DNA from: an uncultured Gammaproteobacteria bacterium
GTDB lineage: Bacteria; Patescibacteriota; Microgenomatia; JAMCZE01
Reading direction: 5' to 3'
Assembly (NCBI GenBank): GCA_964641255.1
Contig: CAZXMM010000001.1
Coordinates: 409,984-473,983, forward strand
Length of the DNA: 64,000 nucleotides
The notes under the pieces were generated by a model. The model had not been told where the DNA came from, ran no database searches, and saw nothing but the letters and a program-made list of their open reading frames with translations. Made by a program: the position numbers and the translations under genes. Positions 2,300 to 60,688 of this stretch are shown here, piece after piece; position 1 is the stretch's first letter; each line of letters begins with the position of its first letter.

Positions 2300-2306
2300 T
2301 AGCTAA

Positions 2307-41760: not shown

Positions 41761-41762
41761 CG

Positions 41763-44932: not shown

Positions 44933-45675
44933 CTAAGGTATTGGTCTAGTGGGGTTCCTCGCTCTAACTTTAAGCTCTTGATATCCGTGGTCTGTTTCCT
45001 TCCGAGAAGTTTTCTGACGATAACAATAGGATTAATAAAATTAAGCGAGTACCAGAGGTTATCTCCTAAGAATCGGTAGTGTTTTATTCCAAGTTTTAGG
45101 GCCAATTGTCGCCACTCAGATCTAGTGTAGGGATACTCTTCTCCTACTTTCCAAAGTTTGGCCATTTCAGCCGCTACCTTAAAGAAACGATAGGGCAGGT
45201 TATAGGCATTTGGGACCGAGATAATAGCGATGCCCTGTGGTTTGAGCAGATCAAAATGAGCTTGATTGATTGTCAGACGCCTTTCACCACTAAAATGTTC
45301 GGTGAGGCCAAATGACATGGCTATATCAAATTTTCCCTTCAGTTCTTTAGGCAGATTAAGGGCATCGGCCTGAATGAATGTGGCCTGTAGTCCATTATGT
45401 TTAAAGAAGGATTTTGCCCTTGATAGTGCTTTGGGAGAATAATCCAGGATCGTTACTTTAGCGCCGTTTTTGGCCATGAGAGCCGCGTTGGTACCAGCTC
45501 CCGCTCCTATTTCAATCACTTGTAAGTCCTTTGCAAAGCTAAAGTGGCTATTGACTAAGGAAAGAATCCGTTGCCAGCGAATCGACAGTTCTTCTTGAGC
45601 TAAGTTAAATCGGTCTTCATTAGGCGTGACATCTCTCCATAGTTTATCCCATAGCTCAGGTGAGTTTTGTGTCAT
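44899..45675 (-). CDS. Class I SAM-dependent methyltransferase
   Basis: Motif I VIEIGAGAGTNAALMAKNGAKVTILDYS, then FDIAMSFGLTEHF. Start placed at the internal ATG (MTQNSPELW; the ORF is open to 45852) to leave a 51-bp divergent spacer before the ABC permease gene. Confidence 0.75.
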   Translation of the reverse strand: MTQNSPELWDKLWRDVTPNEDRFNLAQEELSIRWQRILSLVNSHFSFAKDLQVIEIGAGAGTNAALMAKNGAKVTILDYSPKALSRAKSFFKHNGLQATFIQADALNLPKELKGKFDIAMSFGLTEHFSGERRLTINQAHFDLLKPQGIAIISVPNAYNLPYRFFKVAAEMAKLWKVGEEYPYTRSEWRQLALKLGIKHYRFLGDNLWYSLNFINPIVIVRKLLGRKQTTDIKSLKLERGTPLDQYLSYSLVFVGFKD

Positions 45676-45726
45676 AAGACTTACTAGAGATAATACACCA
45701 AAATCGCTATACTTACGCCTGAGAAT

Positions 45727-46548
45727 ATGATTAAGCCGATTATCATTCGTCCTAGTGAGCCGTGGTGGAAAATTGATTTTGCCGAAATTTGGCAGTATAA
45801 AAATTTGTTGTATGTTCTGGCTTGGCGTGATGTAACTGTTAGGTATAAGCAAACAGTTCTCGGGATTCTCTGGGCAGTTTTTCAGCCGTTGGTGACGACA
45901 GGTATTTTTAGCATCTTCTTTGGAACCATCGCCAAAATTCCTTCCGATGGACTGCCTTACCCACTGTTCACTTTCATCGGCCTTGCTTTGTGGAATTTTT
46001 TTTCAAGTGGAATAGCAAATGCCAGCAACAGTCTCATTACTAACGCGAGTATAATTACTAAGGTATATTTTCCCAGGTTTTTAGTTCCCTTTGCTTCAAT
46101 TGCTACATCTGGTGTCGATTTTGCCATTACACTTTTATTAGTTCTGGTAGCAATTTTATTATATGGCTACATACCCTCGATCCAAACTTTATACGTCTTT
46201 CCCATGCTTTTAGTAATTCTTGTTTTAGCCATGGGAGGACTGGGTCTAATGACAGCAGCGATCAATATTAAATTCCGCGATGTCCGTTATATTCTGCCTT
46301 TCTTCATTCAAATTGGTTTGTACATTACGCCAATTATTTATCCATTATCTGTGATTCATGATTATAGGCGGTGGATTTTAATGTTGAATCCTATGACGGC
46401 AGTTATTGAGAGTAGCCGTGCTTTGGTTAATTCAGCCTCATTGGATTGGCTAATGATTTCGATTGGGTTTTTAGTTGCCTTGGGGTTATTTATCCTTGGG
46501 CTCTATTTATTTAGGAAAACAGAATATTTATTTGTTGATATATCCTAA
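45727..46548 (+). CDS. ABC-2 type polysaccharide/teichoic-acid exporter permease (Wzm/TagG-like)
   Basis: 273 aa with 6 TM helices. N-terminal WRDVTVRYKQTVLGILWAVFQPL is the ABC-2 family signature. Confidence 0.8.
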   Translation: MIKPIIIRPSEPWWKIDFAEIWQYKNLLYVLAWRDVTVRYKQTVLGILWAVFQPLVTTGIFSIFFGTIAKIPSDGLPYPLFTFIGLALWNFFSSGIANASNSLITNASIITKVYFPRFLVPFASIATSGVDFAITLLLVLVAILLYGYIPSIQTLYVFPMLLVILVLAMGGLGLMTAAINIKFRDVRYILPFFIQIGLYITPIIYPLSVIHDYRRWILMLNPMTAVIESSRALVNSASLDWLMISIGFLVALGLFILGLYLFRKTEYLFVDIS

Positions 46549-46550
46549 CA

Positions 46551-47768
46551 ATGCAACCTATTATTGAAGTTAAAAATCTATCAAAGAAATATAGCTTAGG
46601 TTCATATCAACCTTACGAAACCCTTCGAGATACTATAGTAAGCTTATTTAATAAGCAGGGACTACACTCTAATAAATTAAAAAAACAAGAATTCTGGGCA
46701 CTAAAGGACATTAATTTTGAAGTACAAAAAGGCGAAGTTATTGGCATTATCGGCAGAAATGGGGCAGGCAAAAGTACCCTTCTTAGAATTCTAAGTCGAA
46801 TAACGCTTCCGACAGAAGGCGAAGCAATTATGCATGGACGGGTGGCCAGTCTGTTGGAGGTGGGAACGGGATTTAGTCCCGAGCTAACAGGCCGGGAAAA
46901 CATTTTTTTAAATGGTGCAGTTTTAGGGATGGGGCGCAAAGAAATCCAACGAAAATTTCAGGCTATCGTTAATTTTGCTGAAATAGGCAAGTTCATTGAC
47001 ACACCAGTCAAATACTATTCATCAGGGATGTATACCAGGCTAGCTTTTGCAGTAGCGGCTCATCTAGAGCCCGAGATTTTGATCGTTGACGAAGTATTGT
47101 CAGTTGGGGATTTAAGATTTCAAAAGAAGTCTTTAGGAAAGATTGAAGATTTGACCCATGCGGAAGGAAGGACAGTTTTGTTTGTTAGCCATAATATGGG
47201 AGCTGTAAACCAATTATGTCGTCATACTATTCTTTTGGATGGTGGAAAAGTGGTGTTTTATGGAGCTACAGAGGAAGCCATTCGGTTGTATTCGCTGCAG
47301 AGCTTTGATAAAAACCAATTTAAAACTGTGCTTCAGGGGGATTTAGCGACTACACTAAAGCTAACCCAGATTTTTATTAACAATAAAGAGGCTAATAATC
47401 AGGTGCTATTGCCGAATCAAAGCATTGAATTTAAGGCGAAATTTAAGAGTAAGAAGAAAAACTCTAACCTAGTCATTAATTTTTCGTTATATAAAGATGG
47501 TCAGAGGCTTTTTACATTAAGTGATACAGAAAACCCGAGAGATCAACCCACAGGAAATTTTATCTCCGAATTTCAAATTCCAAGCTACTTATTACGTCCA
47601 GGTTATTATTCCATTGCCTTGGGTGGGTATCGTGTGGGCAGTGGTGAGTGGTGCTGGGGTACCGATTTAGCAGGATTTACCATAGCAGAGGTTTGGGACA
47701 GGAAAAATATACAAACTAACTTAGGAATTTTCAATCTACCCAATTATGGGCAACGAAAAAATGAATAA
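46551..47768 (+). CDS. ABC exporter ATP-binding protein (Wzt/TagH-like) with about 150 aa C-terminal extra domain
   Basis: Walker A GRNGAGKST, signature YSSGMYTRLAFAVA, Walker B ILIVDEVLSVGD. The C-terminal 150 aa (YKDGQRLFTLSD...GYYSIALGGYRV) is beta-rich, as in Wzt carbohydrate-binding domains. Confidence 0.8.
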   Translation: MQPIIEVKNLSKKYSLGSYQPYETLRDTIVSLFNKQGLHSNKLKKQEFWALKDINFEVQKGEVIGIIGRNGAGKSTLLRILSRITLPTEGEAIMHGRVASLLEVGTGFSPELTGRENIFLNGAVLGMGRKEIQRKFQAIVNFAEIGKFIDTPVKYYSSGMYTRLAFAVAAHLEPEILIVDEVLSVGDLRFQKKSLGKIEDLTHAEGRTVLFVSHNMGAVNQLCRHTILLDGGKVVFYGATEEAIRLYSLQSFDKNQFKTVLQGDLATTLKLTQIFINNKEANNQVLLPNQSIEFKAKFKSKKKNSNLVINFSLYKDGQRLFTLSDTENPRDQPTGNFISEFQIPSYLLRPGYYSIALGGYRVGSGEWCWGTDLAGFTIAEVWDRKNIQTNLGIFNLPNYGQRKNE

Positions 47769-48492
47769 ACAAAGAAAGGTAATTACGAGAAGAACATGCT
47801 TTCCCCTTTGGGATGTAATTTTATTACACAACAAAATAGAAAACTTACCTCGTTTATTTAGGGCTATGGAATTATTTTTATGGGAATTCGCCTTCTTTAC
47901 CAGCGTCAATCGTCACGAACCAGTTGATAAAAACTTACAGCCTGTCCCGTGGTTAACGTATCCTGCTATCGAATTTTTAAACAGATTAAATTTTAAATCT
48001 AAATCGGTTTTTGAATTTGGGGCAGGTAATTCCTCACTTTATTTTTCAGGAAAGGGTGCTAGTGTTTTCAGTGTTGAGAGTGATTTACACTGGTATAATA
48101 GGCTTAGTCTCAGGATAGCTAATAATAACAAGCTTTATTACGCCAAAACCAAGAAGGAATATCTAGAGTCAATTAAAAAACCAAGGACAAAATTTGATGT
48201 AGTTCTAATCGATGGGCTTTATAGGTATAGCAGTTCTTCATTAGCAATCAAATATCTCAAACCAACCGGTTTTATTATTTTGGATAATAGCGAGTGGTTT
48301 CCTAGGGCGTTTGCCCAGCTCGAAAGTTGTGGGTTTACGCACGTCGACTTTAGTGGCTTTAGCCCATTTAATGACTACACACTTACCACCTCAATTTTTT
48401 TTAAAAAGTCTAGTTCCTTTGATTTTGATTCTGATAAAAATGCTCACTACTCGATTGGCTCGATAAAGCACATTTCCCCCGAGGACCGTTAA
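47761..48492 (+). CDS. Putative SAM-dependent methyltransferase (class I fold)
   Basis: FEFGAGNSSLYFSGKGASVFSVESD (G-x-G motif I) and VVLIDGLY (motif post-I/II). ATG at 47761 overlaps the ABC ATPase stop (ATGAATAA). Confidence 0.5.
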   Translation: MNKQRKVITRRTCFPLWDVILLHNKIENLPRLFRAMELFLWEFAFFTSVNRHEPVDKNLQPVPWLTYPAIEFLNRLNFKSKSVFEFGAGNSSLYFSGKGASVFSVESDLHWYNRLSLRIANNNKLYYAKTKKEYLESIKKPRTKFDVVLIDGLYRYSSSSLAIKYLKPTGFIILDNSEWFPRAFAQLESCGFTHVDFSGFSPFNDYTLTTSIFFKKSSSFDFDSDKNAHYSIGSIKHISPEDR

Positions 48493-48502
48493 GTTATTAA
48501 TC

Positions 48503-49375
48503 ATGAAGATTTATATTTTGCCAGTCGATAAGGAATTGCAACCGCACAAACAACCTTTTAAGTATCCAAAACATAACAATTTTTATGGTGTTGAGCAGGA
48601 CTTTTATGCATTTTTAACTACACATCGTCAGTTGTTGACAACTGATGAAAATAAGGCTGATTGGCATTATCTACCGATTTATTGGACACGACGACATCAT
48701 AATAAAGGTACTAGCAATGCGGCCCTTAAAGAATTGCAAGAAAAAGTTGACAAAATCATAGTAAACTCAAAAAAAACCTTTACCATTTGCCAGTATGATG
48801 ATGGACCTATGGTCAAATTAGGCAAAGGACAAGTTTTTCTATCCTCAAGAAAGTCGTACGTTGGCCTTGATATTCCTTTATTATCCGCGACTCATCGGTT
48901 TCCGCTGTTTAAACAATCAAAAAAGTATTTAGCTTCCTTCGTTGGAAGATTCTCAACACACCCTATACGACAGAGAATGGCTGAAAAGCTGAGTAACAGA
49001 CCTGGTCTTTTTATTAAAGACGGTGAGATCTCAGAAGGCGACTTTGTTAAGTTGATTCTAAGATCATATGTTTCGCTTTGCCCCCGAGGCTATGGGGGAA
49101 GTTCTTTTAGATTTTTTGAATCTCTGCAGTTAGGTGTTGTTCCTTTAATGATAGGTAATGTAGATACGAGACCCTTTAAAGAGTTTATTGACTGGAATGC
49201 TATTTCTTTTTTTGCTCGCGACGAAAACTCTGCCCTAGCTATTTTAGAAAAAGCAAATCTTAAACAGCTACTCAATATGGGTCAGAGAGCGCTGTCATTT
49301 TATCGATCAGATCTAGACTATGGCAAATGGTGTAAATACGTTATTATGGAACTGAAAAGGAGACAGTCTCAATAG
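48503..49375 (+). CDS. Exostosin-like (GT47 family) glycosyltransferase
   Basis: C-terminal LCPRGYGGSSFRFFESLQLGVVPLMI matches the exostosin-family consensus C-P-x-G...S-x-R-x-x-E-x-x-x-x-G-C/V-x-P-V. Confidence 0.5.
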   Translation: MKIYILPVDKELQPHKQPFKYPKHNNFYGVEQDFYAFLTTHRQLLTTDENKADWHYLPIYWTRRHHNKGTSNAALKELQEKVDKIIVNSKKTFTICQYDDGPMVKLGKGQVFLSSRKSYVGLDIPLLSATHRFPLFKQSKKYLASFVGRFSTHPIRQRMAEKLSNRPGLFIKDGEISEGDFVKLILRSYVSLCPRGYGGSSFRFFESLQLGVVPLMIGNVDTRPFKEFIDWNAISFFARDENSALAILEKANLKQLLNMGQRALSFYRSDLDYGKWCKYVIMELKRRQSQ

Positions 49376-49496
49376 TCTAGACCTTACTAAACATTATCGC
49401 CGGCACATGCCAGCAAAATTGTGAAAGTTCGAGTCCTGAAAAGAAATATAAAATAATTGTTATTAGTCAAACTGTTTTTATAGAAATCATAAAAAG
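49376..49496. promoter_or_regulatory. Largest intergenic spacer in the locus (121 bp, AT-rich); putative internal promoter / operon boundary
   Basis: Sequence ...gaaatataaaataattgttattagtcaaactgtttttatagaaatcataaaaagATG. The flanking genes are otherwise overlapping or separated by fewer than 15 bp. Confidence 0.35.
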
Positions 49497-50366
49497 ATGA
49501 TAAATCTAAGTTTTTTTATCCCTGCCTATAACTGCGCGACAACCATTGCAGAAGCTGTTGATTCAATTTTCAAGGCTAATTTTGTTAAGGGCGATGAAGT
49601 AATTATTGTGGACGACTGTTCAACTGATCGGACACTAAGAGCTATAACGGCTCAGATGAAAAAGCACCCCGAAATTTTATTGCTAAAACATCCGTTCAAT
49701 AAGGGCGCTGGTGCGGCACGGAACACGGCAATTGAACAAGCTCGGAACAAGCTAGTCTTTTGTTTAGACTCGGACAATTTGCTAGTTCCCAATAGCGTAA
49801 GACCGCTACTTGCCTATCATATCGAAACTAAGTCTGACGCCAGTGCCTTTCAACAGTTGCATTTTTTCAAGAAAACTCCCAGGCATGTTACCCATAAATG
49901 GACATTTCATCCTGGTGTGTATACTCTATCTGAACATCTTTCAAAGTCACAGCTTCCTGGAGCAAGTGGTAATTATTTATTCTCGAAGCAGGCTTGGCTT
50001 AGGGCGGGTCGTTATCCAGAGTTTGTTGGGGCATTAGATTCTTGGTCTTTTGGCTTGCGTCTTCTCGCCACCGGTTCGAAGATGTCAGTCTTTGAGAATA
50101 CGCATTACTTCCATCGCTTTGGCCATGAATCAGATTGGGTGCGGTATTCTCAAAAAAAACACTTTTTTTCTTTAGCTGCTTTGCAGGTAATTATTCCTTT
50201 CCTGGACTTGCTTGATCCGAAGGACATTGAATATATTATGAGTAAAAAAGGAAGGTACAATTGGTTTGAGCACATAGAAAAAAGGCCAATTCGCCTCAGA
50301 AAAACACCGATACAAAGTAGCCGTATCAGAGAGCTAATAAATAAATTAGGTAGTATTAAATCATGA
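49497..50366 (+). CDS. GT2 family glycosyltransferase
   Basis: FIPAYNCATTIAEAVDSI, VIIVDDCSTDRT and CLDSDN. Confidence 0.75.
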   Translation: MINLSFFIPAYNCATTIAEAVDSIFKANFVKGDEVIIVDDCSTDRTLRAITAQMKKHPEILLLKHPFNKGAGAARNTAIEQARNKLVFCLDSDNLLVPNSVRPLLAYHIETKSDASAFQQLHFFKKTPRHVTHKWTFHPGVYTLSEHLSKSQLPGASGNYLFSKQAWLRAGRYPEFVGALDSWSFGLRLLATGSKMSVFENTHYFHRFGHESDWVRYSQKKHFFSLAALQVIIPFLDLLDPKDIEYIMSKKGRYNWFEHIEKRPIRLRKTPIQSSRIRELINKLGSIKS

Positions 50367-51010
50367 GACTACATTTAGGATGTGGAGAAAATTATTTGAA
50401 GGGCTATTGTAATATCGATTTTTCATCGACGCATCATACAGTTCAAAAAAAAGGTGTGGCTGACAGATATGCCAATATTCTCAACTTAAAATATAAGAAA
50501 AGTTCAATTGAAGAAATACGACTGCATCATGTTTTTGAGCACTTTTCTCGAGCTATAGCTTGTGCATTATTGGTTAGTTGGCATTCATGGCTAGAGATTG
50601 GGGGACTTCTCAGAGTTGAAGTTCCTGATTTTGAAAATACTAGTAAGATTTTTGGTAGACTCCTTTCTACTGAACACCAAAGAAATGTCGCAATGCGACA
50701 TATTTTCGGGTCACAGGAAGCTAGCTGGGCAGTGCATTATACAGGTTGGACTGAAAAGACCCTGACTGCTCTTCTTAATAAGCTCGGGTATTCCATTGAG
50801 AAAGTAAATAGATTTACATACAAAGGAACATCAAATCTGGAAGTTTTCGCGCGTAAAGCGCAAAATGATCTTTCAAACGACGCTTCCACTAAAGTAGTCA
50901 AAAGTTTTCTGAAATCTTTCACTCTTGACGGATCTACATCTGAAAAAGAGATTTTATCTGTTTGGCTAAGTGAGTTTAAAAGCCAAGTAGCTAAAGGAGT
51001 ACGGAAGTGA
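50363..51010 (+). CDS. Putative class I SAM-dependent methyltransferase
   Basis: N-terminal MRLHLGCGENYLKGYCNIDF (LxLGCG motif I), then HVFEHF. Confidence 0.5.
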   Translation: MRLHLGCGENYLKGYCNIDFSSTHHTVQKKGVADRYANILNLKYKKSSIEEIRLHHVFEHFSRAIACALLVSWHSWLEIGGLLRVEVPDFENTSKIFGRLLSTEHQRNVAMRHIFGSQEASWAVHYTGWTEKTLTALLNKLGYSIEKVNRFTYKGTSNLEVFARKAQNDLSNDASTKVVKSFLKSFTLDGSTSEKEILSVWLSEFKSQVAKGVRK

Positions 51011-51741
51011 AAGGTGTCAGCGTGGTTATCCCCACTTATAATCGGGAAAAGTTTTTAACGGCAACCATAAATAGTGTACTTAAACAGACTGTCCCCGTTT
51101 TGGAGATTCTGGTTTGTGATGATGGGTCAATGGACCACAGTCGTCAGGTGATAAAGAAAATTGGCAGTACAAAGGTCCACTGGATTGCTGGATCCCACAC
51201 CGGATTGCCAGCTGTAGCAAGAAATCGAGGTATTGAACGGTCAAAAGGGGAGTTGATTGCATTTTTGGACAGTGATGATACCTGGCTACCAGAAAAAATG
51301 GCCAGGCAACTACCTTTTTTTGACGACCCCAAAGTACTAGGGGTAAGCGCGAATGCTTTACGGATGGTGAAAACTATTGAGAGTGGTCGTGTTATCGTTG
51401 GAAACAATAGCAATCTTTCTGTTGCTTCTCTTTTGTTCCAAAATTCAGTCATCTGCAGTTCAATGGTGGTTCGTCGATCTGCCTTGGAAGCTACTGGGGA
51501 CTTCTCTGAAAAAAATTCACTACGAGGATTTGAAGACTATGCCCTTTGGCTTAGGGTGGCAGCCCTTTTTCCGATCAGCTTTGTTGCCGAGCCGCTAGTT
51601 CGTTATCGTGACGAGTTTCAAGACAGTCTGCGTTATGAGTCCGAAAGGGATGTTGTGAAGCAAAAACTTGAAGTATTAAAAAATTTTCTTCCCTGGCTAA
51701 TTTACCATTTTCCATTAATTATTTCATACCACATGCAATGA
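51007..51741 (+). CDS. GT2 family glycosyltransferase
   Basis: GTG start. VSVVIPTYNREKFL, LVCDDGSMDHS and FLDSDDTWLPEK. Confidence 0.75.
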   Translation: MKGVSVVIPTYNREKFLTATINSVLKQTVPVLEILVCDDGSMDHSRQVIKKIGSTKVHWIAGSHTGLPAVARNRGIERSKGELIAFLDSDDTWLPEKMARQLPFFDDPKVLGVSANALRMVKTIESGRVIVGNNSNLSVASLLFQNSVICSSMVVRRSALEATGDFSEKNSLRGFEDYALWLRVAALFPISFVAEPLVRYRDEFQDSLRYESERDVVKQKLEVLKNFLPWLIYHFPLIISYHMQ

Positions 51742-53450
51742 TTGAGATTGGATTATTGGTTGTGGCAACAGGTAAATATATTCAATTTGTCGATCCTTTA
51801 TGGAAGTCAACTAAAAGGTACTTTCTTAAGCAACGCAATATCAGAGTAACTATGTTTGTTTTTACTGATTCTGATACTGTTCCAGCTGGAACTAAACGCC
51901 TGTTTTGGGAACATCGCGCCTTCCCCTTCGCCACTCTTCTTAGGTACCATGTGTTTACAAAGTACCAAAAGACCCTAAAGAAGATGGACTACCTCTTCTA
52001 TTGCGATGCTGACATGGAATTTGTTTCACTAGTAGGCGAAGAGATTCTTGGTAAACGAGTCGCCACCCTTCACCCAGGCTTTTATACTAAAGCTCGAAAA
52101 GATTTTACTTATGAAAATAATTCTAAGTCGACTGCCTATATTTCTCCTGATCAAGGGAAAGCGTATTATTGCGGTGGTTTCAATGGGGGAGAGGTAAAAG
52201 AATTTTTGAATATTGCCCGGATTCTAAAAAGGAATATTGATAAAGATTTGAAAAATGGCATTATCGCTTCACATAACGATGAAAGCCACTATAATTGGTA
52301 TCTCGCTAAACACCTTCCCACGTTGGTTCTTTCACCCTCATACTGCTATCCAGAAGATCTCTTACCAGCGGTTCGGGCGAAAGATCTGAAAAGCGGGATT
52401 AATAAGTTAATTTGGTTTCCGAAGCAACTGTTGGAACTAAAACCAAAATTAATCGCCAGAAGCAAAGACCATAGCAAAATTCGGTATACCGGGATTCGAC
52501 TGTTAATCGAAACACTTATCCAGTCTAAAGAAGTTCTTTTCCTGAAGGGTTTTACTATTCTTAACAGGGTTAGAGTTGAATGGGTTAGGCTAAAATGGCA
52601 CTACTTAAGATTGAAGGAGCAAAGCTATCGTAATTATCTTTTGCAACCGCCTATAAAGGTTATTCAGGTCTCACAAAATAGCGCTGCTAACAGAATGCTC
52701 CTCGTCACAGTGGCCTTTAATTGCGTCTGGACTATAGAGGCGCAAATAGATGCTTTAAAAAAGAACCTTCAGGATCCTTTTACTCACATAATAATTGATA
52801 ATTCTAGTGATAGTGCTAGACGATCAGAAATAGAACAAGTGGCTCGCACAAAGGGGGTGGGTTACATCTCTTTGCCGAAAACACCTTCACATATTTCACC
52901 GAGCATGTCTCATGGACTAGCTCTCAATTATGCTTGCAACTGGACTAGTAAGCACCTTGCGAAGTATGTAGTAATTGGCTTTTTGGATCATGATATTTAT
53001 CCATTCAAGTCGACAAATCTATTTCCAATTATGAAAAAGCAGCCCTTTTACGGCCTCTTACAAAATAGAGAAGAAAAGTGGTACTTATGGCCGGGCTTCA
53101 TGTTTTTTAATAGAGATTTCAGCAACAGTAAGCAAATAAATTTTCTTCCTCAAAATGGTCTTGATACTGGTGGAAGGAATTGGGAATCTATCTACCGCCA
53201 CATAGAAAAATCTTCAATTGAATTTCCCCAGCAGTTTTACGTATCCCTCAGTGACTATAAAAAGCTTCGCAATATTAATGCATTTCCTAAAATACCAATT
53301 TCCAAAAAGAATCAGCTAGTGAAAAAAGATCAATTAATAGAGATAATAGATAGCTGGGTGCATGTGTTTAATGCGTCGAATTGGCGAAAAGCAAATGATA
53401 AGGAAAAAGAAGTTAAAGAATTCTTACTATGGCTAAACAAGCATTCATAA
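51738..53450 (+). CDS. Two-domain glycosyltransferase: N-terminal GT6 domain (ABO blood-group / alpha-1,3-Gal(NAc) transferase family) fused to a C-terminal GT-A (GT2-like) domain
   Basis: N-terminal half aligns motif by motif with mammalian/bacterial GT6: FVFTDSD, DYLFYCDADMEFVSLVGEEILGKRVATLHPGFY, FTYENNSKSTAYISPDQGKAYYCGGFNGGEV and NDESHYNWYLAKHLPTLVLSPSY. C-terminal half (from about aa 300) reads LLVTVAFNCVWTIEAQI...IIIDNSSDSARR...YVVIGFLDHDIYPF, which looks GT-A. Confidence 0.8.
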   Translation: MIEIGLLVVATGKYIQFVDPLWKSTKRYFLKQRNIRVTMFVFTDSDTVPAGTKRLFWEHRAFPFATLLRYHVFTKYQKTLKKMDYLFYCDADMEFVSLVGEEILGKRVATLHPGFYTKARKDFTYENNSKSTAYISPDQGKAYYCGGFNGGEVKEFLNIARILKRNIDKDLKNGIIASHNDESHYNWYLAKHLPTLVLSPSYCYPEDLLPAVRAKDLKSGINKLIWFPKQLLELKPKLIARSKDHSKIRYTGIRLLIETLIQSKEVLFLKGFTILNRVRVEWVRLKWHYLRLKEQSYRNYLLQPPIKVIQVSQNSAANRMLLVTVAFNCVWTIEAQIDALKKNLQDPFTHIIIDNSSDSARRSEIEQVARTKGVGYISLPKTPSHISPSMSHGLALNYACNWTSKHLAKYVVIGFLDHDIYPFKSTNLFPIMKKQPFYGLLQNREEKWYLWPGFMFFNRDFSNSKQINFLPQNGLDTGGRNWESIYRHIEKSSIEFPQQFYVSLSDYKKLRNINAFPKIPISKKNQLVKKDQLIEIIDSWVHVFNASNWRKANDKEKEVKEFLLWLNKHS

Positions 53451-54070
53451 ATGTAACATACGAATCTCTTGTCACACCACCACTTGCTATTGGTGCGTGG
53501 ATACGAAAGGATTTTCCTGGTTTTGATAGGGATTACTTGGCAATCCATTGTTTAATCAGAAAGTATCAGCCCAAAACTTTCCTTGAAATTGGAACAAGCA
53601 CGGGGTTGGGAACCAAAGTAATTTGTACAGCTATTGGGATTAGGAAAGCCCATTGGTGGAATTTATTTGGTTCCCACGACGTATCAACACCAAAGGTTTT
53701 TTCAATCGATGTACCTCCAGGTACTGATCCAACAATTATTTATCCCGCAAAAGAAGACGGTCACCCAGATAAGACAGGAAAATACTGCAAATTTCCCTTC
53801 ACGCAGCTATTTGGCGACTCCCAAACATTTAATTTTAAACCGTACTATCCATTAGATGGTTGGTTCATCGATGGCAAACATAACTTTGAATTTGCTAGTA
53901 AGGATACAAGACAGGCTTTGAAGGCTAAAGCTAAGATAATTATCTGGCATGATATGCAAATCGAAGATGTTGCTCGTGCTGTAGAAATCGTTATGAGAAA
54001 GCAGAAACGATATAGCTGTTATCGTGTTGCGCAAACTCGAATCGCTTTCGCTGTACGCAAGATATCATAA
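53429..54070 (+). CDS. Class I SAM-dependent methyltransferase (CmcI/TylF-like O-methyltransferase fold)
   Basis: FLEIGTSTGLGTKVI (motif I), DGWFIDGKHNFE and IIIWHDM. Confidence 0.55.
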   Translation: MAKQAFINVTYESLVTPPLAIGAWIRKDFPGFDRDYLAIHCLIRKYQPKTFLEIGTSTGLGTKVICTAIGIRKAHWWNLFGSHDVSTPKVFSIDVPPGTDPTIIYPAKEDGHPDKTGKYCKFPFTQLFGDSQTFNFKPYYPLDGWFIDGKHNFEFASKDTRQALKAKAKIIIWHDMQIEDVARAVEIVMRKQKRYSCYRVAQTRIAFAVRKIS

Positions 54071-54957
54071 TGATTATTGTCAAATTAGTGGGTGGCCTGG
54101 GAAACCAAATGTTTCAATACGCGACCGCCCGCGCTCTTGCCGAAAGACACCGTTGTGAATTAAAGCTAGATACTAGTTGGTTCCGCAAGCCTGGATCAGA
54201 TACCCGCCGTTCTTACGGTCTAAGAGTTTTCAATACCGTTAAGGCCCAAGCCACGAAACGGGAAATTAATGCTGTCAAACATCGGAGCGGAAACAAATTG
54301 GACCGAATATTAAGAAGCCATTTTCGGGGTTTTTTTCCGTTGCGTAAAAGCTATTTCTTTGAAGAAAGCGCTCTTCATTTTAGCCCGGAAGTCCTTAAAC
54401 TGACCGATAATTCTTATTTGGAAGGCTTCTTTCAGTATTTGGCGTATTTTCAATCGATTGAAAAAATATTGCAGGATGAATTTCAGTTTATTAAGCAACC
54501 CAACAAGAAAAACAAGCTAATTTTAGATAAAATAGAGATACAAAATTCAGTGTCTGTCCATATCAGGAGAAAAGACTATATTTCTAATAAAAATTATCGT
54601 AGTTATTTTGCCCATCCTAGTAGGCTATATTATAAAAAGGCTATGGAAATGATTAATCGAAAAGTGCCCAGTCCTGACTTCTATATTTTTTCTGATGATA
54701 TACCTTGGGTAAAAAAGCATTTTAAAAATAATCATAACATGCATTTTATTTCCCATAATAAAGGGAAAAACGATTTTGAAGACATGAGACTTATGCAAAG
54801 CTGTAAACACAATATCACTGCCAATAGCTCCTTTAGCTGGTGGGCAGCATGGTTGAACCAAAATCCTCACAAGATCGTAATTACCCCCCGTAAATGGTAC
54901 CAAGACAAATTAGCCGAAATGACTGGGAAGTTTCCTCCTAATTGGACAAAGCTATAA
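54070..54957 (+). CDS. GT11 family alpha-1,2-fucosyltransferase
   Basis: Diagnostic GT11 motifs: MIIVKLVGGLGNQMFQYATARALA, SVHIRRKDYIS and ANSSFSWWAAWLN. Confidence 0.85.
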   Translation: MIIVKLVGGLGNQMFQYATARALAERHRCELKLDTSWFRKPGSDTRRSYGLRVFNTVKAQATKREINAVKHRSGNKLDRILRSHFRGFFPLRKSYFFEESALHFSPEVLKLTDNSYLEGFFQYLAYFQSIEKILQDEFQFIKQPNKKNKLILDKIEIQNSVSVHIRRKDYISNKNYRSYFAHPSRLYYKKAMEMINRKVPSPDFYIFSDDIPWVKKHFKNNHNMHFISHNKGKNDFEDMRLMQSCKHNITANSSFSWWAAWLNQNPHKIVITPRKWYQDKLAEMTGKFPPNWTKL

Positions 54958-54960
54958 ATT

Positions 54961-55764
54961 ATGAAACCACTCATTTCTTATAAGAAAAACGTGTTCTCCC
55001 AGAATGGTGAAGACGGAATTATTGCAGAAATTTTTAGACGTTTGAGGGTGGATAGTGGAGTTTGTATCGAATTTGGGGCTTGGGATGGAATTCATCTAAG
55101 TAATATCCGTAATCTGGTTATAAACGGTTGGACTGGAATATTTATTGAATCCGATAAGGAAAGGTTTAATCAACTAAAAAAGAATTATGCACAAAATAAA
55201 AATGTTATAAGCATTAACGCTACTGTCGGCTCTGGTATAAATAGCCTCCGAGCTATCTTTAGAAGAAAAGGTATCTCACTTTATTTAAATAAAATAGATT
55301 TTTTGAGCATAGATATTGATGGCCTGGATCATCATATTTTTGAGTCGTTAGATTTTAATCCTAAATTAATCTGTATTGAAGCAAATTCTGCCTTTTCACT
55401 AAATGAAAGTCTAAACCAAACTCTCTATTCGAAGGAAACGGGGAGATCTCTTCAATGCTTAACCACGATTGGTGAGTCTAAAAACTATGTTCTCATTTGC
55501 TTCACGGGCAATTGCCTTTTTTTAAGAAAGGATTTATTGGAGCAAACCAATTTGGAAGAGTTGTCTGTTAAAGAAGCTTACACAGCTTTCTTGGACTACC
55601 TAACAGAAAATGAGCGCCAATGGTTATTTCTAGTAAATCTAGGTTTAGTATTTCCGTACCGCCATTTCAAAAATACTTATCTTTCTCTTCAAAGTTTACA
55701 TTTATTGCCTCATCAAATTGCCCTCGCTATTGGCAAACTCTTAAGAGCTAAATTACTCGGATAA
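54961..55764 (+). CDS. FkbM-family methyltransferase (putative)
   Basis: N-terminal FSQNGEDGIIAEIF...GVCIEFGAWDG resembles the FkbM-domain start (SQxGED...DxGA). Confidence 0.45.
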   Translation: MKPLISYKKNVFSQNGEDGIIAEIFRRLRVDSGVCIEFGAWDGIHLSNIRNLVINGWTGIFIESDKERFNQLKKNYAQNKNVISINATVGSGINSLRAIFRRKGISLYLNKIDFLSIDIDGLDHHIFESLDFNPKLICIEANSAFSLNESLNQTLYSKETGRSLQCLTTIGESKNYVLICFTGNCLFLRKDLLEQTNLEELSVKEAYTAFLDYLTENERQWLFLVNLGLVFPYRHFKNTYLSLQSLHLLPHQIALAIGKLLRAKLLG

Positions 55765-55771
55765 TGGATTT

Positions 55772-56848
55772 ATGAATCGTTTTAAACCAGTAAAACTATC
55801 GGTAATAATGCCTGTATATAATGGTGCACTTTATCTACGAGAATCTATTGATAGCGTTCTTCGTCAGACCTTCACAAATTTTGAATTCATCATTATTGAT
55901 GATGGTTCTACTGATAAAACACAAGAAATTGTTGAGTCTTATTCTGATTTACGAATTAAGCTAGTAAAAAACTCTAAGAATTTAGGAATAGTTGACAGCC
56001 TGAATATTGGTCTGGTTAAAGCAACTGGTGAGTACGTCATCAGAGTAGACGCCGATGATATCTGTGTTAGAACTCGTTTTGAGAAGCAGGTTAAGTTTAT
56101 GGATGGTCACCCTACAGTGGGTGTTTGTGGAAGTGCCATAAGGATTTTTTCTAGAATTCCTGTGATTGGTATGACAATTGTAAAGCCTGTTAGCCATCGT
56201 GAGATCGTCTCGGAAATGCTTTTTCGCAATGTTATCCAACACCCAACTGTCATTTTGAGGAAAAACCTTTTCCAAAAGTACAAGCTTCGCTACCGGAGTT
56301 TATATCCACATGCGGAAGATTATGATTTGTGGTCCCGGGCCGGTAGGCTTTTTGATTTGGCAAATCTTCGTGAAGCCTTGTTGTATTACCGCTATCATTC
56401 AAAATCGATAGGCGCTACTTCTAATATCGTTCAACAAGCTAATGTTAGACAAGTCAGGCAAGAATATTGGAAATCATTGGGCATCAAACTTGATCCCGAC
56501 GAAATTGCTTTATTGCACAGTGTCTGCGACCTGTCTGTTGCTCCGATAGACGAGTTTACAGCTGCAAAGGTAGGAGCAGCCTTGTTAAGCTTTCAGTCCC
56601 AAGTGAATAAAAAAAATCTCTTTCCGCCGAAGTTTATTTCTAAACATACCTCCAAGCAGTGGTACGCTTTTTGTGCCAAACTCTCCACTCTTGGCCTAGT
56701 GGCCTGGAGATTATATTGGCAGTCTCCTCTTAGCAAAGCGGCAGCTTTGAGCATTTCAGATCGATTAATTTTCCTAATGCATTGTTCATTAAAAATGAGC
56801 GACTTTACTCTCCAAAGGAAACTTGCCAGACTGATTGCCGGTTGGTAG
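55772..56848 (+). CDS. GT2 family glycosyltransferase with about 120 aa C-terminal extension
   Basis: LSVIMPVYNGALYL, FIIIDDGSTDKT and RVDADDI. Confidence 0.8.
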   Translation: MNRFKPVKLSVIMPVYNGALYLRESIDSVLRQTFTNFEFIIIDDGSTDKTQEIVESYSDLRIKLVKNSKNLGIVDSLNIGLVKATGEYVIRVDADDICVRTRFEKQVKFMDGHPTVGVCGSAIRIFSRIPVIGMTIVKPVSHREIVSEMLFRNVIQHPTVILRKNLFQKYKLRYRSLYPHAEDYDLWSRAGRLFDLANLREALLYYRYHSKSIGATSNIVQQANVRQVRQEYWKSLGIKLDPDEIALLHSVCDLSVAPIDEFTAAKVGAALLSFQSQVNKKNLFPPKFISKHTSKQWYAFCAKLSTLGLVAWRLYWQSPLSKAAALSISDRLIFLMHCSLKMSDFTLQRKLARLIAGW

Positions 56849-56857
56849 TCTCAATAT

Positions 56858-58033
56858 ATGAAAATACATACGATAGAGAAAATTGGCTCCGAAAACAGTT
56901 TACGGCTGCAATTTCCCATAACCTTTGACGGCAAGGAAAGGAACTTCCCTACTGCTTTGTATTATCAAATAGAGAAAAAATTTGAATCCTTGTTAAGTTT
57001 AAATAGCGACAGTGCTCTGGTGGCCATGCTCCTTTTGGCAATGAACCTTAAAGAGGATATCTTTGTGGAAGGATCCGTTTCAGAACAATTGATTAATAAT
57101 TTGCTGAAATATCAAGATATTGTTCATGAATGGTTTCCCAAAACCTTCTACAAAATAAAAATATCTGCCGAGCACATTGTTAGCGAAACTAAATTGAAGA
57201 ACAAAGCCGTGGGGATGGGTTTCTCTGGAGGTGTAGATTCCTTCTACACTCTTTGGAGCCATCTTGCCCCGCAAGAAAAAGATGCTTCAAAGAGGGTGAC
57301 CCACGGGATCTTTGTTCATGGTTTTGATTTTTCTCTGCCTAAAAGAGCCAGCTATGATCGCGCCTATGAGGCCTACAAGGTAATGCTTGAAAGCCTTGGC
57401 CTTACTCTAATTGGTGTGGAGACTAACATCAGGCAGTTCACTGATTATTACAGTTGGGAGATGGCCCATGGCTCCGCCCTGGGAAGTTGTGCCTTACTGT
57501 TTGAAAAAGTTTTTGGCACTTTTTACATTGCCTCGTCAGATGTTCCAGCGGCACTTAAGCCACTTGGCTCGCACCCCGACCTTGATCCACTGTTATCTAG
57601 CAATCAGATGACGGTAGTTCATGATGGATTGCAAAGTTCAAGGGTAAAAAAGATAAAAGCCCTTATCACCTGGCCACTCACTTACGATAATCTTCGGACT
57701 TGTTGGAGAAATCAGGACGGAGTGAAGAATTGTGGGCGGTGTGATTATTGTCTGCGGGTAATGGCAATCCTGGAAGCATTTGGAGTTTTAGGAAAGTACA
57801 CAACCTATCCTCCCTCGTTCTCTTATAACAGCTTAATAAATGCTCAATTTGTCTCAAAAAATCGCCAAATAATTGCCGACGAGATTATTGCTCTGGCTAA
57901 GAAGAATCATAATGAAAAACTCGCCGGTGCAGTAAAACGGGCTAAAGAGCGTGGTGCCCTGCTTTTTAAAATCAAACCACTTACTGACTTTGTTGACCAG
58001 ACGATTTATCACCTTATGCATAAGTACCAATGA
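56858..58033 (+). CDS. QueC/ExsB-like PP-loop ATP pyrophosphatase with C-terminal Cys cluster and about 110 aa N-terminal extension; putative sugar amidotransferase/amidoligase
   Basis: PP-loop GMGFSGGVDSFYTL (SGGxDS). C-terminus TCWRNQDGVKNCGRCDYCLRVMAILEAFG matches the QueC zinc-site pattern C...CGxCxxCxxR...G. Confidence 0.5.
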   Translation: MKIHTIEKIGSENSLRLQFPITFDGKERNFPTALYYQIEKKFESLLSLNSDSALVAMLLLAMNLKEDIFVEGSVSEQLINNLLKYQDIVHEWFPKTFYKIKISAEHIVSETKLKNKAVGMGFSGGVDSFYTLWSHLAPQEKDASKRVTHGIFVHGFDFSLPKRASYDRAYEAYKVMLESLGLTLIGVETNIRQFTDYYSWEMAHGSALGSCALLFEKVFGTFYIASSDVPAALKPLGSHPDLDPLLSSNQMTVVHDGLQSSRVKKIKALITWPLTYDNLRTCWRNQDGVKNCGRCDYCLRVMAILEAFGVLGKYTTYPPSFSYNSLINAQFVSKNRQIIADEIIALAKKNHNEKLAGAVKRAKERGALLFKIKPLTDFVDQTIYHLMHKYQ

Positions 58034-60683: not shown

Positions 60684-60688
60684 CTTTA

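Follow-up and report, generated by a model that had tools for sequence, protein, structure and literature searches.

A probable O-antigen-like variable cassette, predicted to make an ABC-exported and possibly blood-group-A/B-like glycan, in a Patescibacteria-type genome

The window, by which we mean the whole 64-kb stretch of DNA analysed, carries a very large cell-envelope glycan locus, which includes some 20 proteins of GT-C type and, at 365-3797, a GT2-GT2-GtrA-PMT_2 group. A conserved backbone beginning near 34927 ends in a left anchor of four genes (41763..44932; GC 0.41-0.45), and a right anchor starts with a DUF2142 membrane protein (Table 1). Between both anchors lie an ABC exporter, glycosyltransferases and methyltransferase-like genes, and the family searches agree with the content given by the original prediction (ABC exporter, GT47, GT2s, GT6 fusion, GT11 and FkbM methyltransferase), the methyltransferase matches being weak. 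The slot between the anchors was compared in nine related loci (L001, L004, L010-L016).

Table 1. Features of the slot and its anchors, with positions in the window
Feature	Position	Strand	Basis or remark
Left anchor GT2	41763-42455	+	Pfam
Left anchor DUF2304	42452-42796	+	Pfam
Left anchor GT4	42793-43896	+	Pfam
Left anchor GT4	43874-44932	+	Pfam
SAM-dependent methyltransferase	44899..45676	-	Pfam Methyltransf_25/31/11
Divergent intergenic region, 50 bp, 5' of wzm	45677..45726	.	Left edge of AT-shifted block
Wzm, ABC-2 permease of polysaccharide exporter	45727..46548	+	PF01061 3.6e-20
Wzt, ABC ATPase	46551..47768	+	PF00005; PDB match to Aquifex aeolicus Wzt
248-aa protein of no assigned function	47746..48492	+	Faint Methyltransf_24 similarity, E 0.15
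GT47 (exostosin)-like glycosyltransferase	48503..49375	+	PF03016 4.8e-20, residues 137-242
AT-rich spacer, 121 bp	49376..49496	.	Parts exporter sub-block from glycosyltransferase sub-block
GT2	49497-50366	+	Pfam
Conserved 215-aa protein, function not assigned	50363-51010	+	ORF; orthologue in L013
GT2	51007-51741	+	Pfam
Two-domain glycosyltransferase, GT6 N-terminal and GT-A-like C-terminal	51738..53450	+	PF03414 7.8e-43
Methyltransf_24/CmcI-like small protein, 213 aa	53429..54070	+	PF13578 E 6e-4, below cutoff
GT11 (alpha-1,2-fucosyltransferase family)	54070..54957	+	PF01531 5.7e-35, 121 bits
FkbM-like methyltransferase	54961..55764	+	PF05050 E 1.2e-4, at cutoff; TIGR01444 E 2e-4
GT2, 358 aa, last gene of AT-shifted block	55772..56848	+	PF00535 1.2e-37
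391-aa protein of no assigned function	56858-58033	+	No Pfam match; GC 0.42
CsaB-like polysaccharide pyruvyl transferase	58030-59223	+	PF04230 3.2e-31; CsaB model below cutoff; GC 0.47
Right anchor DUF2142 GT-C-type membrane protein	59220-60683	+	Pfam
Right anchor Wzx-like flippase	60689-61906	+	Pfam
Right anchor GT2	61875-62663	+	Pfam
Right anchor methyltransferase	62660-63445	+	Pfam

The first gene past the synteny break encodes the SAM-dependent methyltransferase; it has a host-like GC (0.42) and no orthologue at the matching position in relatives, and its start is likely the ATG at 45676 rather than the TTG at 45852 where the automatically called ORF begins. The divergent region beyond it contains promoter-like matches, yet no more than expected from shuffled sequence. 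The Wzm permease and the Wzt nucleotide-binding subunit are encoded side by side (PF01061, PF00005). Wzm matches NCBIfam galactan/KpsM-type permease models under their cutoffs and is 62% identical to its L001 orthologue and 51% to that of L004, while Wzt is 60% identical to its L001 orthologue. The best PDB matches of the ATPase are A. aeolicus Wzt, TarH/TagH and RfbE, with the full-length A. aeolicus protein at the top (8dku/7k2t, E 4e-63; query residues 45-360 aligned with residues 32-351 of 404). Wzt carries a C-terminal extension of ~150 aa which, searched alone, matches Pfam Wzt_C with E 1.4e-4 (22.4 bits, for a gathering cutoff of 30.4), and which is a putative cap-binding carbohydrate-binding domain (CBD). 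The 248-aa protein encoded next has no orthologue among the loci examined. No intergenic gap of the window is larger than the AT-rich spacer, as had been predicted; the spacer probably holds an internal promoter, and its RNA structure is not significant (z=-0.35).

In the glycosyltransferase sub-block, the first GT2 has an L001 orthologue with 44% identity, and L013 keeps the order of GT2, 215-aa protein and GT2, with 55% identity for the 215-aa protein and 43% for the second GT2. The GT6+GT11 pair recurs in four other genomes, where the GT11 orthologues are 40-46% (L001, L013, L015) or 34% (L004) identical. Only the gene of the 213-aa methyltransferase-like protein, a candidate sugar O-methyltransferase, stands between GT11 and the GT6 fusion; L001 and L015 likewise have a CmcI/Methyltransf_24 gene beside the fusion, and in P0006/P0026 the two are joined. 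The FkbM-like gene has the lowest GC of the island (0.345), and its product, a candidate chain-terminating or decorating enzyme, shares 42% identity with the N-terminal portion of a 487-aa FkbM protein encoded after Wzt in L004. The candidates for a capping enzyme, all with weak matches, are the products of the genes starting at 47746 (E 0.15), 53429 (E 6e-4) and 54961 (FkbM, E 1.2e-4). Orthologues of the 358-aa GT2 (38-41%) directly abut DUF2142 in L001, L013 and L015; the genes of the 391-aa protein and the pyruvyl transferase are absent from that position in these three loci, have a host-like GC and are slot genes specific to this genome. No ORF of the window has a Bac_transf/WecA-type match and a tblastn search with the L004 Bac_transf was empty; tblastn of the window with the gmd and fcl genes, which adjoin the cassette in L004, found neither. 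Genes for GDP-fucose supply and for an initiating phosphoglycosyl transferase presumably lie in another part of the genome.

The GT6 fusion joins, by a long helix, an N-terminal domain of the ABO-type family of retaining alpha-1,3-Gal/GalNAc-transferases (PF03414, 146.9 bits) to a C-terminal GT-A-like domain without Pfam family, which shows DNS/DHD motifs and a weak GT2 match (E 0.02). Against solved structures, the GT6 domain matches BoGT6a (4ayj, 4.5e-40) and human GTA/GTB (1e-36), the BoGT6a match covering only the 210 aa of this domain. The AF2 model of the fusion has a pLDDT of 84.7, and Foldseek of the GT6 model gives a GT-A fold with a TM of ~0.9 to BoGT6a and ~0.7 to GTA/GTB. A DXD motif (D90-A-D92) aligns with N95-A-N97 of BoGT6a, and E182 aligns with its catalytic Glu E192, the residue altered in the E192Q entries. 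In the donor-site sequence YYCGGFNGG, a Gly stands at the position of Gly268 in GTA. From its motif, the GT6 domain is presumably metal-dependent, and the DXD-bearing sub-clade consists of the window protein and five relatives. It is the adjacency of GT11 which suggests that Gal or GalNAc would be transferred onto a Fuc-alpha-1,2-Gal acceptor.

Maximum-likelihood two-breakpoint segmentation of the window places a low-GC block at 46,050-57,200 (gain of 63 nats in log-likelihood), almost exactly where the original prediction had put an AT-rich segment (45.7-57 kb). GC is 0.382 inside the block and 0.439 outside; the predicted interval itself (45,700-57,000) gives 0.383 versus 0.439. The real contrast is about 6 GC points, 4-5 times below the 25-30 points announced: at the very points sampled for that estimate, 200-bp windows give 29-31% inside, not 22-25%, and 40-50% in the flanks, not 48-58%, and over the full 64 kb such windows range from 27.5% to 56%. 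The shift as such is genuine, the suggested checks of GC profile, codon usage and tetranucleotide usage all separating the block from its flanks; it was its size that had been far overstated. Mean GC3 is 0.355 for the 13 ORFs of 45,727-58,033 and 0.434 for the 40 others (Mann-Whitney p=8e-7). The type-specific genes of the window stand at -4.6 GC points and -8.1 GC3 points relative to the flanks. Per gene, GC1 is also reduced and GC2 is not, and the shift persists among soluble-enzyme genes alone (GC3 0.350 in the block, 0.415 in the flanks, p=1e-4). In contrast, the dinucleotide signature does not distinguish block and flanks once protein type is controlled (delta* 25.7 between the block and soluble flank genes, null 39.5±12.6).

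The same GT6/GT11 cassette, with the core order GT2-(215-aa protein)-GT2-GT6 fusion-GT11-GT2, lies immediately upstream of DUF2142 in three of the nine loci (L001, L013, L015), and L004, from Nomurabacteria, has a rearranged version adjoining Bac_transf, fcl and gmd. The five others (L010, L011, L012, L014, L016) carry unrelated glycan genes beside one anchor, and their slots contain no orthologues of the 45.7-57 kb genes, only generic GT2-family matches (24-33%). The anchors themselves are conserved. On the left, gene order is kept in L010, L011, L012 and L016 (identity 40-72%) and partly in L001, the backbone as a whole being 40-75% identical in the former four before unrelated genes follow. 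On the right, L015 has the same order (DUF2142 48%, GT2 45%, methyltransferase 56%, Wzx-like gene present), and L014 keeps it too, DUF2142-Wzx-GT2 included (45/41/54% for DUF2142, GT2 and methyltransferase), with a PMT_2 inserted and unrelated genes upstream; DUF2142 is 45% identical in L001 and 48% in L013. Between the same genome pairs, cassette orthologues (38-62%) and anchor orthologues (44-56%) are similarly diverged. The scans found no conspecific or congeneric genome, the nearest relatives being ~40-75% identical per protein, and for the flank GT4 and DUF2142 proteins nothing above 52% except the genome itself.

Since several alternative gene sets lie between the same anchors, we infer from these deep comparisons between diverged genomes that the cassette has been exchanged or replaced over evolutionary time, with recombination inside the conserved anchors as the likeliest route, by analogy with O-antigen and capsule loci. 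The idea of a distinct replaceable module inside a resident GT-C-rich glycan locus is thus borne out, the module starting at the synteny break and ending in a right-anchored slot. Horizontal acquisition holds in part: the module is replaceable and horizontal exchange within the phylum is plausible, but the AT shift is not the dated mark of one acquisition. Overall, we consider it probable that the AT-shifted block forms the type-specific centre of a variable cassette set in a hypervariable slot (~44.9-59.2 kb), a degree of confidence given to the whole explanation of cassette, slot, export and standing AT shift.

Across eight loci, slot GC follows backbone GC (r=0.97) with a slope below 1, and is the lower of the two in six (Wilcoxon p=0.02; GC3 p=0.008); for the source organism, host GC is an estimate from ~50 kb of neighbouring glycan genes only. 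The offset widens as host GC rises, and none is seen in L001 and L012, both of low GC, or in L016. Slots with unrelated genes are AT-shifted as well (L014, p=0.0016; L010, p=0.01), and the GC of cassette orthologues, from about 26-35% up to 42%, follows the host. Since the same offset occurs in relatives' slots irrespective of their gene content, and cassette GC follows the host, the AT shift cannot be read as a dated acquisition signature; a modest shift of this kind is a lasting trait of the slot genes of the lineage, and it is not a trace of recent import from another phylum. Slot genes may circulate in a mostly AT-rich Patescibacteria gene pool, and/or be under weaker GC-maintaining selection.

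The original prediction had instead proposed low-GC host-associated donors. A recent, unameliorated import of a blood-group-antigen module from an animal-associated source (Bacteroides, Helicobacter or Firmicutes-like) would agree with the genuine GC3, codon-usage and tetranucleotide shift, with the mostly host-associated Gram-negative origin of characterised GT6 and GT11 enzymes (PMC3961637, PMC4202792), and with Bacteroides ovatus BoGT6a as the top structural match of the GT6 domain. We nevertheless judge it very improbable. The named closest full-length homologues of the fusion are from Nomurabacteria and the Patescibacteria group (31-44% identity over >95% of the length), beyond the reach of the single-domain BoGT6a match; the named relatives of the flank genes (Gottesmanbacteria, Microgenomates, Patescibacteria group) are likewise all Patescibacteria, and the host genome is of Patescibacteria/CPR type, probably Microgenomates-like. 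Host-associated donors are unlikely, every named relative being a Patescibacterium and one source metagenome environmental. Moreover, the complete cassette order is found again in four other such contigs, its GC tracks each host, and the offset extends to unrelated slot genes. The borders lack integrase, tRNA and repeats: the window contains no tRNA, only short chance-level repeats and no ORF with a mobility domain (integrase or transposase), which does not fit a classical mobile genomic island.

Replacement of the cassette has also to be weighed against vertical inheritance in a sub-clade, other lineages having diverged or lost the genes in situ and the AT shift arising only because fast-evolving glycan genes, under relaxed selection or little expressed, are exposed to AT-biased mutation pressure. 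The similar divergence of cassette and anchor orthologues, the host-tracking slot GC with its offset vanishing in AT-rich hosts, and the dinucleotide signature shared by the island and soluble flank genes are in agreement with this explanation, which we hold to be unlikely. L010 has the left backbone closest to the window (up to 75%), yet its slot is unrelated and its DUF2142, on the same contig, is only 37% identical, versus 44-50% in the cassette-sharing genomes; such discordance is expected from replacement. In addition, the backbone is 55-75% identical but the two GT4 genes beside the slot are only 40-47% identical, a drop resembling recombination-prone O-antigen junctions, and the slots hold wholly non-homologous genes rather than diverged versions. 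Chimerism, for which a check near 45.7 kb had been suggested, was considered in the form of two organisms of differing GC joined by assembly or binning near 45.7 and 57 kb; strand and composition do switch abruptly at the 50-bp divergent gap. No sign of it was found, and it is extremely improbable, since independent assemblies show each of the two types of junction again: the GT4-to-Wzm/Wzt transition in L001, and that from the 358-aa GT2 to DUF2142 in L001, L013 and L015. Proteins of the island and of both flanks each occur on two contigs (NCBI and Logan; longest 950,062 bp), ORFs overlap or pack tightly over the right border, and the shift is only 6 points.

Taken together, the gene content is that of a variable cassette of O-antigen-like kind, and the encoded families predict that its product is exported by the ABC transporter, probably capped and possibly a blood-group-A/B-like glycan. 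In the pathway which family knowledge suggests, a polyprenol-linked glycan would be assembled at the cytoplasmic face by the glycosyltransferases of the cassette (GT2s, GT47-like enzyme, GT6/GT-A fusion, GT11). Of these, GT11 would supply an H-like acceptor, Fuc-alpha-1,2-Gal, and the DXD-type GT6 domain would extend it with an alpha-1,3-Gal or GalNAc to form an A/B-like epitope. The chain may then be capped or decorated by one of the methyltransferase-like proteins, and Wzm/Wzt would export it with the Wzt C-terminal domain as cap sensor. Finally, the glycan could be attached to the monoderm envelope, or modified further there, by a GT-C enzyme acting outside the cytoplasm, for which the adjoining DUF2142 protein is the likeliest candidate, or by another ligase. 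A broader proposition, which we advance as speculative and rather doubtful, is that Patescibacteria, episymbionts of microbes in non-animal environments, maintain a slot-swappable, Wzm/Wzt-exported polymer with an ABH-like (fucosylated alpha-Gal/GalNAc) epitope made by an undescribed two-domain GT6/GT-A enzyme, that metal-dependent GT6 of bacteria have an environmental reservoir in the DXD sub-clade, and that DUF2142, closely linked to the cassette, is the missing surface ligase of ABC-exported glycans in such monoderm cells. If true, it would bear on the origin of the vertebrate ABO/GT6 family and on the direction of transfer.

A swappable glycan cassette is an ordinary kind of feature, and it is the host which is unusual. 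E. coli O86 is Wzx/Wzy-dependent, whereas the cassette pathway is ABC-transporter-dependent by its genes and the window lacks gmd and fcl. The likeness to O86, whose B antigen is made by GT11 plus the GT6 WbnI (PMC4202792), and to BoGT6a (PMC3961637) lies in GT6 and GT11 occurring in one cluster; unlike nearly all bacterial GT6 (NXN), the enzyme here has DXD and bears an additional GT-A-like domain. With enterobacterial O-antigen (rfb) and capsule loci, such as the Salmonella galactose-initiated clusters (PMC3715488), the slot shares conserved anchors around non-homologous alternative gene sets, type-specific glycosyltransferase genes below flank GC, identity and GC falling toward the variable centre, and a lack of classical mobile-element hallmarks. 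In Salmonella the O-antigen glycosyltransferase, wzx and wzy genes have 28-37% GC in a genome of 51-52%, dropping toward the type-specific centre (PMC3715488), an offset of 15-20 points compared with ~6 here. The present host differs in being a monoderm, ultra-small-genome Patescibacterium without LPS, the anchors are glycosyltransferases and GT-C proteins instead of housekeeping genes, and the variation is known between deeply diverged genomes only.

A CBD-bearing Wzt recognises a methylated cap (PMC9445017). With such CBD-dependent Wzm/Wzt systems (A. aeolicus WzmWzt, E. coli O9a WbdD; PMC9445017, PMC3482155) the cassette has in common a Wzm permease, a Wzt with a C-terminal extension putatively homologous to that of A. 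aeolicus, methyltransferase-like genes beside the transporter, glycosyltransferases which are all of cytoplasmic types, and no Wzy polymerase. It differs from them in that the window lacks a WbdD-like kinase, a coiled-coil ruler and an initiating transferase, the CBD assignment is sub-threshold, and the surface acceptor cannot be lipid A-core. A further likeness, predicted from genes, is to three-component extracytoplasmic glycosylation, in which a GT2 polyprenyl-P-sugar synthase, a GtrA-type flippase and a GT-C enzyme act together (PMC11127046); the GT2-GT2-GtrA-PMT_2 group, the many GT-C proteins and the DUF2142 adjoining the cassette correspond to it, and this likeness concerns the flanks, not the AT-shifted block.

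A 1-kb GC profile of the whole window displays a trough at ~46-57 kb, with values of 0.34-0.42 against 0.40-0.48 elsewhere. Maximum-likelihood two-breakpoint segmentation placed the borders of this island at 46,050 and 57,200, with a GC content of 0.382 within and 0.439 outside (gain of 63 nats). The original prediction had announced a low-GC island at 45.7-57 kb, and its location stands; its magnitudes (22-25% against 48-58% GC) do not, since 200-bp windows measured 29-31% at 47.8, 54.5 and 55.3 kb and 40-50% at 9.6, 20.3 and 30.2 kb, the most extreme 200-bp windows of the entire stretch being 27.5% and 56%. As a compositional island the feature is ordinary, and the extreme contrast is nonexistent. 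At the level of individual genes, GC3 was 0.355 for the island versus 0.434 for the other genes (p=8e-7); GC1 also carried the shift and GC2 showed none. Since polytopic membrane proteins predominate in the flanks, the island was tested again relative to 15 soluble-enzyme flank genes, and GC3 remained lower (0.350 versus 0.415, p=1e-4). The RSCU correlation was 0.72 for the island in this test versus 0.87 between the two flank classes, and the tetranucleotide correlation, compared over like-sized halves, was 0.72±0.03 for the island versus 0.84±0.03. A strong dinucleotide deviation of the island (delta* 56.6, null 25±9) was traced to the confounding contrast between soluble and polytopic membrane proteins, as the dinucleotide signature did not differ from that of the soluble flank genes (delta* 25.7, null 39.5±12.6). 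The GC profile, codon usage and tetranucleotides, which had been named as the check, thus give a significant shift and a codon usage that is not uniform: the island shift is real, statistically solid, correctly placed and ~6 GC points in size.

The gene calls made from the sequence were confirmed by Pfam, NCBIfam and PDB searches, and the only sizeable spacer described there is the 121-bp gap listed in the table, in which no significant fold was found. The C-terminus of Wzt gave a sub-threshold Wzt_C match. Promoter and terminator scans returned no matches above shuffle expectation. On the minus strand, a methyltransferase gene has a 126-nt overlap with wzm if it is started at the TTG of the mechanical ORF; with the in-frame ATG at 45676, a 50-bp divergent intergenic region takes the place of this overlap. 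The 3' end of the gene overlaps the convergent GT4 end by 34 nt.

Features of the variable slot and its surroundings (window positions)
Feature	Position	Remarks
Left anchor	41763-44932	GT2-DUF2304-GT4-GT4
Methyltransferase	44899-45852 (-)	
Wzm	45727 (+)	Pfam/NCBIfam/PDB searches
Wzt	46551 (+)	405 aa; alignment with full-length Aquifex aeolicus Wzt continues well past the nucleotide-binding domain
248-aa protein	between Wzt and GT47-like gene	no assigned family
GT47-like enzyme	after 248-aa protein	
121-bp spacer	after GT47-like gene	largest gap in the window
GT2, conserved 215-aa protein, second GT2	after spacer	215-aa protein without assigned family
GT6 fusion	51738-53450 (+), after second GT2	570 aa
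C-terminal domain of GT6 fusion	52650-53447	~270 aa, residues ~305-570
Methyltransf_24-like protein, GT11, FkbM-like protein, 358-aa GT2	after GT6 fusion	in this order
391-aa protein and CsaB-like pyruvyl transferase	56858-59223	GC 0.42 and 0.47, host-like; 391-aa protein without detectable family
Right anchor	59220-63445	DUF2142-Wzx-GT2-MTase

The remainder of the window is a single continuous glycosylation locus encoding ~20 GT-C-type polytopic membrane proteins (PMT_2, YfhO, PTPS_related and DUF2142, several being without a Pfam match), GT2 and GT4 enzymes, one GtrA and two Wzx-like flippases. This glycosylation super-locus occupies essentially the whole 64 kb, which is 99% coding, and especially 2307-36693. 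If the source contig is ~0.95 Mb, the envelope glycosylation locus would represent roughly 6-7% of the genome.

To delimit the variable part, gene contexts were compared for homologues sitting on long contigs (nine related loci, L001, L004 and L010-L016). The order GT2-GT4-(Mannosyl_trans2-like)-GT2-DUF2304-GT4-GT4 is common to the window, L010, L011, L012 and L016, and in L010 and L012 it extends leftward into PTPS_related. Directly past the second GT4, these four relatives each carry their own glycan genes, without homology between the sets. Identity of L010 to the window is 55-75% over 36.7-42.8 kb and decreases to 40-47% for the final pair of GT4 genes. This gradient (36690-44932) fits recombination breakpoints close to the slot and is like the one described for Salmonella O-antigen clusters at their rml end. 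On the right side, L014 has DUF2142(45%)-PMT_2-Wzx(41%)-GT2(54%) and L015 has DUF2142(48%)-Wzx-GT2(45%)-MTase(56%). Upstream of its DUF2142, L014 encodes CapK, UDP-glucose dehydrogenase, MBOAT, GT4 and epimerases, and no exporter, GT6 or GT11 is found among its slot genes.

The cassette itself recurs in L001, as GT4(44%)-MBOAT-AlgX-Wzm(62%)-Wzt(60%)-...-GT2(44%)-...-GT6 fusion(42%)-...-GT11(43%)-GT2(40%)-DUF2142(45%)-Wzx, in L013, as GT2-unk215(55%)-GT2(43%)-GT6 fusion(41%)-GT11(46%)-GT2(38%)-DUF2142(48%), and in L015, as GT6 fusion(42%)-...-GT11(40%)-GT2(41%)-DUF2142. The Nomurabacteria locus L004 is arranged as Bac_transf-Wzm(51%)-Wzt(47%)-FkbM(42%)-GT2(42%)-GT6 fusion(32%)-GT2-GT11(34%)-fcl-gmd; a small ORF with a GIY-YIG domain lies between its fcl and gmd (14229-14486 of L004) and may be a homing-endonuclease-like selfish element within a glycan cluster. 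These anchor and cassette orders define a slot of ~44.9-59.2 kb in the window, with the AT-shifted block nested within it. The 358-aa GT2 and DUF2142 are directly adjacent in L001, L013 and L015, and the two genes between them in the window, for the 391-aa and CsaB-like proteins, are exactly the slot genes missing in the other cassette-bearing genomes. DUF2142 orthologues come closest to that of the window (44-50%) on contigs also bearing GT6 fusions (19,222, 18,360 and 100,877 bp), whereas on the contigs with the best shared left backbone (L010-L012) DUF2142 reaches only 37-39%. This distribution suggests joint transfer or co-evolution of DUF2142 and the cassette, and a functional tie between this GT-C protein and the cassette.

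A 950,062-bp contig (NCBI and Logan) carries 100% matches to the GT6 fusion, the left-flank GT4 and the right-flank DUF2142; after these, the best relatives of all three share only 44-52% identity. Where relatives carry a name, those of the GT6 fusion are assigned to Candidatus Nomurabacteria or 'Patescibacteria group', and those of the flank genes to Gottesmanbacteria, Microgenomates or 'Patescibacteria group'. With relatives of the same phylum and a similar identity gap, the island and its flanks share their affinities and are similarly isolated. The metagenome that provided L013 also gave Borg elements of methane-oxidising archaea, indicating an environmental sample. The proposed donors, low-GC host-associated bacteria, are thus not borne out, the named relatives being Patescibacteria with one environmental source. 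A scan of genome contigs with Wzt recovered only distant ABC ATPases, its patterns being drawn from non-conserved stretches; a first metagenome scan with GT4 gave no match, and in a second one, with a GT4 alignment, just two orthologues came up among mostly generic GT4s.

Several origins of the AT shift could be considered. A recent block from one foreign donor is unlikely, because cassette GC tracks the hosts: orthologues have 26-35% GC in L004, 33-35% in L001 and L015, 38-40% in the window and 40-44% in L013. Given protein identities of 40-60%, there was ample time for amelioration. A classical integrative island was rejected, as neither tRNA nor mobility genes occur in the 64-kb window and border repeats are at chance level only. 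An assembly chimera was also considered and rejected. Over eight loci, the mean GC of slot genes follows that of the backbone (r=0.97) and lies below it in six (Wilcoxon p=0.02; p=0.008 for GC3), the offset being ~0 in hosts of 32-33% GC and -4.6 to -6.1 points in hosts of 44-48%. It is individually significant in slots filled with unrelated genes (L014, p=0.0016; L010, p=0.01). Together with the host-tracking GC, this indicates that the offset is a standing property of slot genes.

Such a standing offset is compatible with continual exchange in a mostly AT-rich Patescibacteria gene pool, with weaker GC-maintaining selection, which would act on fast-evolving and probably weakly expressed slot genes, or with both. 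In L001, L010-L015 and the window, slot GC rises on backbone GC with a slope of ~0.5-0.6 and converges at ~33%, AT-rich hosts showing no offset; this regularity, if examined genome-wide, could help to tell a shared gene pool from relaxed selection. In O-antigen and capsule biology, it is textbook knowledge that type-specific polysaccharide genes, set between conserved flanks, have a lower GC content than the genome. The same pattern has long been known in Salmonella O-antigen clusters, where GT genes, wzx and wzy show 28-37% GC versus 51-52% and GC declines toward the type-specific centre (PMC3715488). The feature works like a variable O-antigen/capsule-type cassette and agrees with one in the properties tested (conserved flanks, alternative gene sets, lower GC); as a classical mobile island it fails. 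From the original interpretation, the replaceable module within a resident locus is retained, and an extreme, demonstrably recent island from host-associated low-GC bacteria is not. When a glycan locus shows a modest decrease in GC, caution is needed in taking it as evidence of recent or cross-phylum transfer. Our data extend this locus architecture to Patescibacteria, where alternative cassettes lie between conserved anchors with an AT offset that scales with host GC. Patescibacteria surface glycans are presumed to mediate host-cell attachment and phage evasion, and are experimentally inaccessible.

The encoded pathway would be ABC-transporter-dependent, with cytoplasmic glycosyltransferases and a Wzm/Wzt exporter with a C-terminal extension. 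Export in A. aeolicus is licensed by a 3-O-methyl sugar cap that the CBD recognises (PMC9445017). The cassette has no polymerase, and its methyltransferase-like proteins are, from their families, candidates for a non-reducing-end cap. Membership of the CBD-dependent Wzm/Wzt pathway is plausible, the CBD and the capping enzymes being putative; its initiating enzyme is absent from the window, as are homologues of gmd, fcl, Bac_transf and Wzy_C. After export, the glycan would presumably be transferred to a wall or S-layer acceptor, for which the DUF2142 protein, tightly linked to the cassette, is a speculative candidate. CsaB-like pyruvyl transferases have been linked to wall-polymer anchoring by SLH domains, and the one present here hints, again speculatively, at an SLH-anchored wall polymer.

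GT11 enzymes form Fuc-alpha-1,2-Gal, to which GT6 enzymes (GTA, GTB, BoGT6a, WbnI) add alpha-1,3-GalNAc or Gal (PMC4202792, PMC3961637). Since the GT11/GT6 pairing recurs in five genomes, an A/B/H-like epitope is a reasonable prediction from the gene content, and the cassette points to a recurrent GT6+GT11 module outside animal-associated bacteria. Of more interest is the GT6/GT-A fusion family, with a rare DXD sub-clade in environmental Patescibacteria. In the GT6 domain of the window, the DXD motif is D90-A-D92 and the catalytic Glu is E182, the counterpart of BoGT6a E192 in the alignment; metal dependence is therefore predicted. The donor-site sequence YYCGGFNGG has a Gly where GTA has Gly268, which would leave room for GalNAc, although this is only a hint. 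The fusion family is split between a DXD sub-clade (the window protein and homologues P0002-P0005 and P0008, CD[AV]DM) and a NAN sub-clade (P0009-P0029) that includes the Nomurabacteria protein and carries the BoGT6a motif; the donor-site residue separates them as well (YYCGG versus YFAGG). Only two bacterial DXD-type GT6 were known in 2014 (PMC3961637).

The conserved C-terminal domain has invariant DNS and DHD motifs, a Rossmann-like beta/alpha pattern and a weak GT2 match; it matches no PDB sequence, and no Pfam family reaches threshold. In the structure model, it is predicted with mostly good confidence and is preceded by a helix of ~50 residues (253-302), the first part of which is of low confidence. 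When the two-domain model was searched by fold, GT6 structures were the only matches, which gave no structural placement for the C-terminal domain. It is probably a second, unclassified GT-A glycosyltransferase domain. Other metagenomic GT6 domains are fused to GT2, GT11, SAM methyltransferases, NAD-dependent epimerase/dehydratase, GT8 or a radical-SAM domain (P0006, P0021, P0025, P0026, P0030-P0032, P0044, P0052, P0082 and P0098); the characterised single-domain enzymes give no hint of such extensive domain shuffling around GT6.
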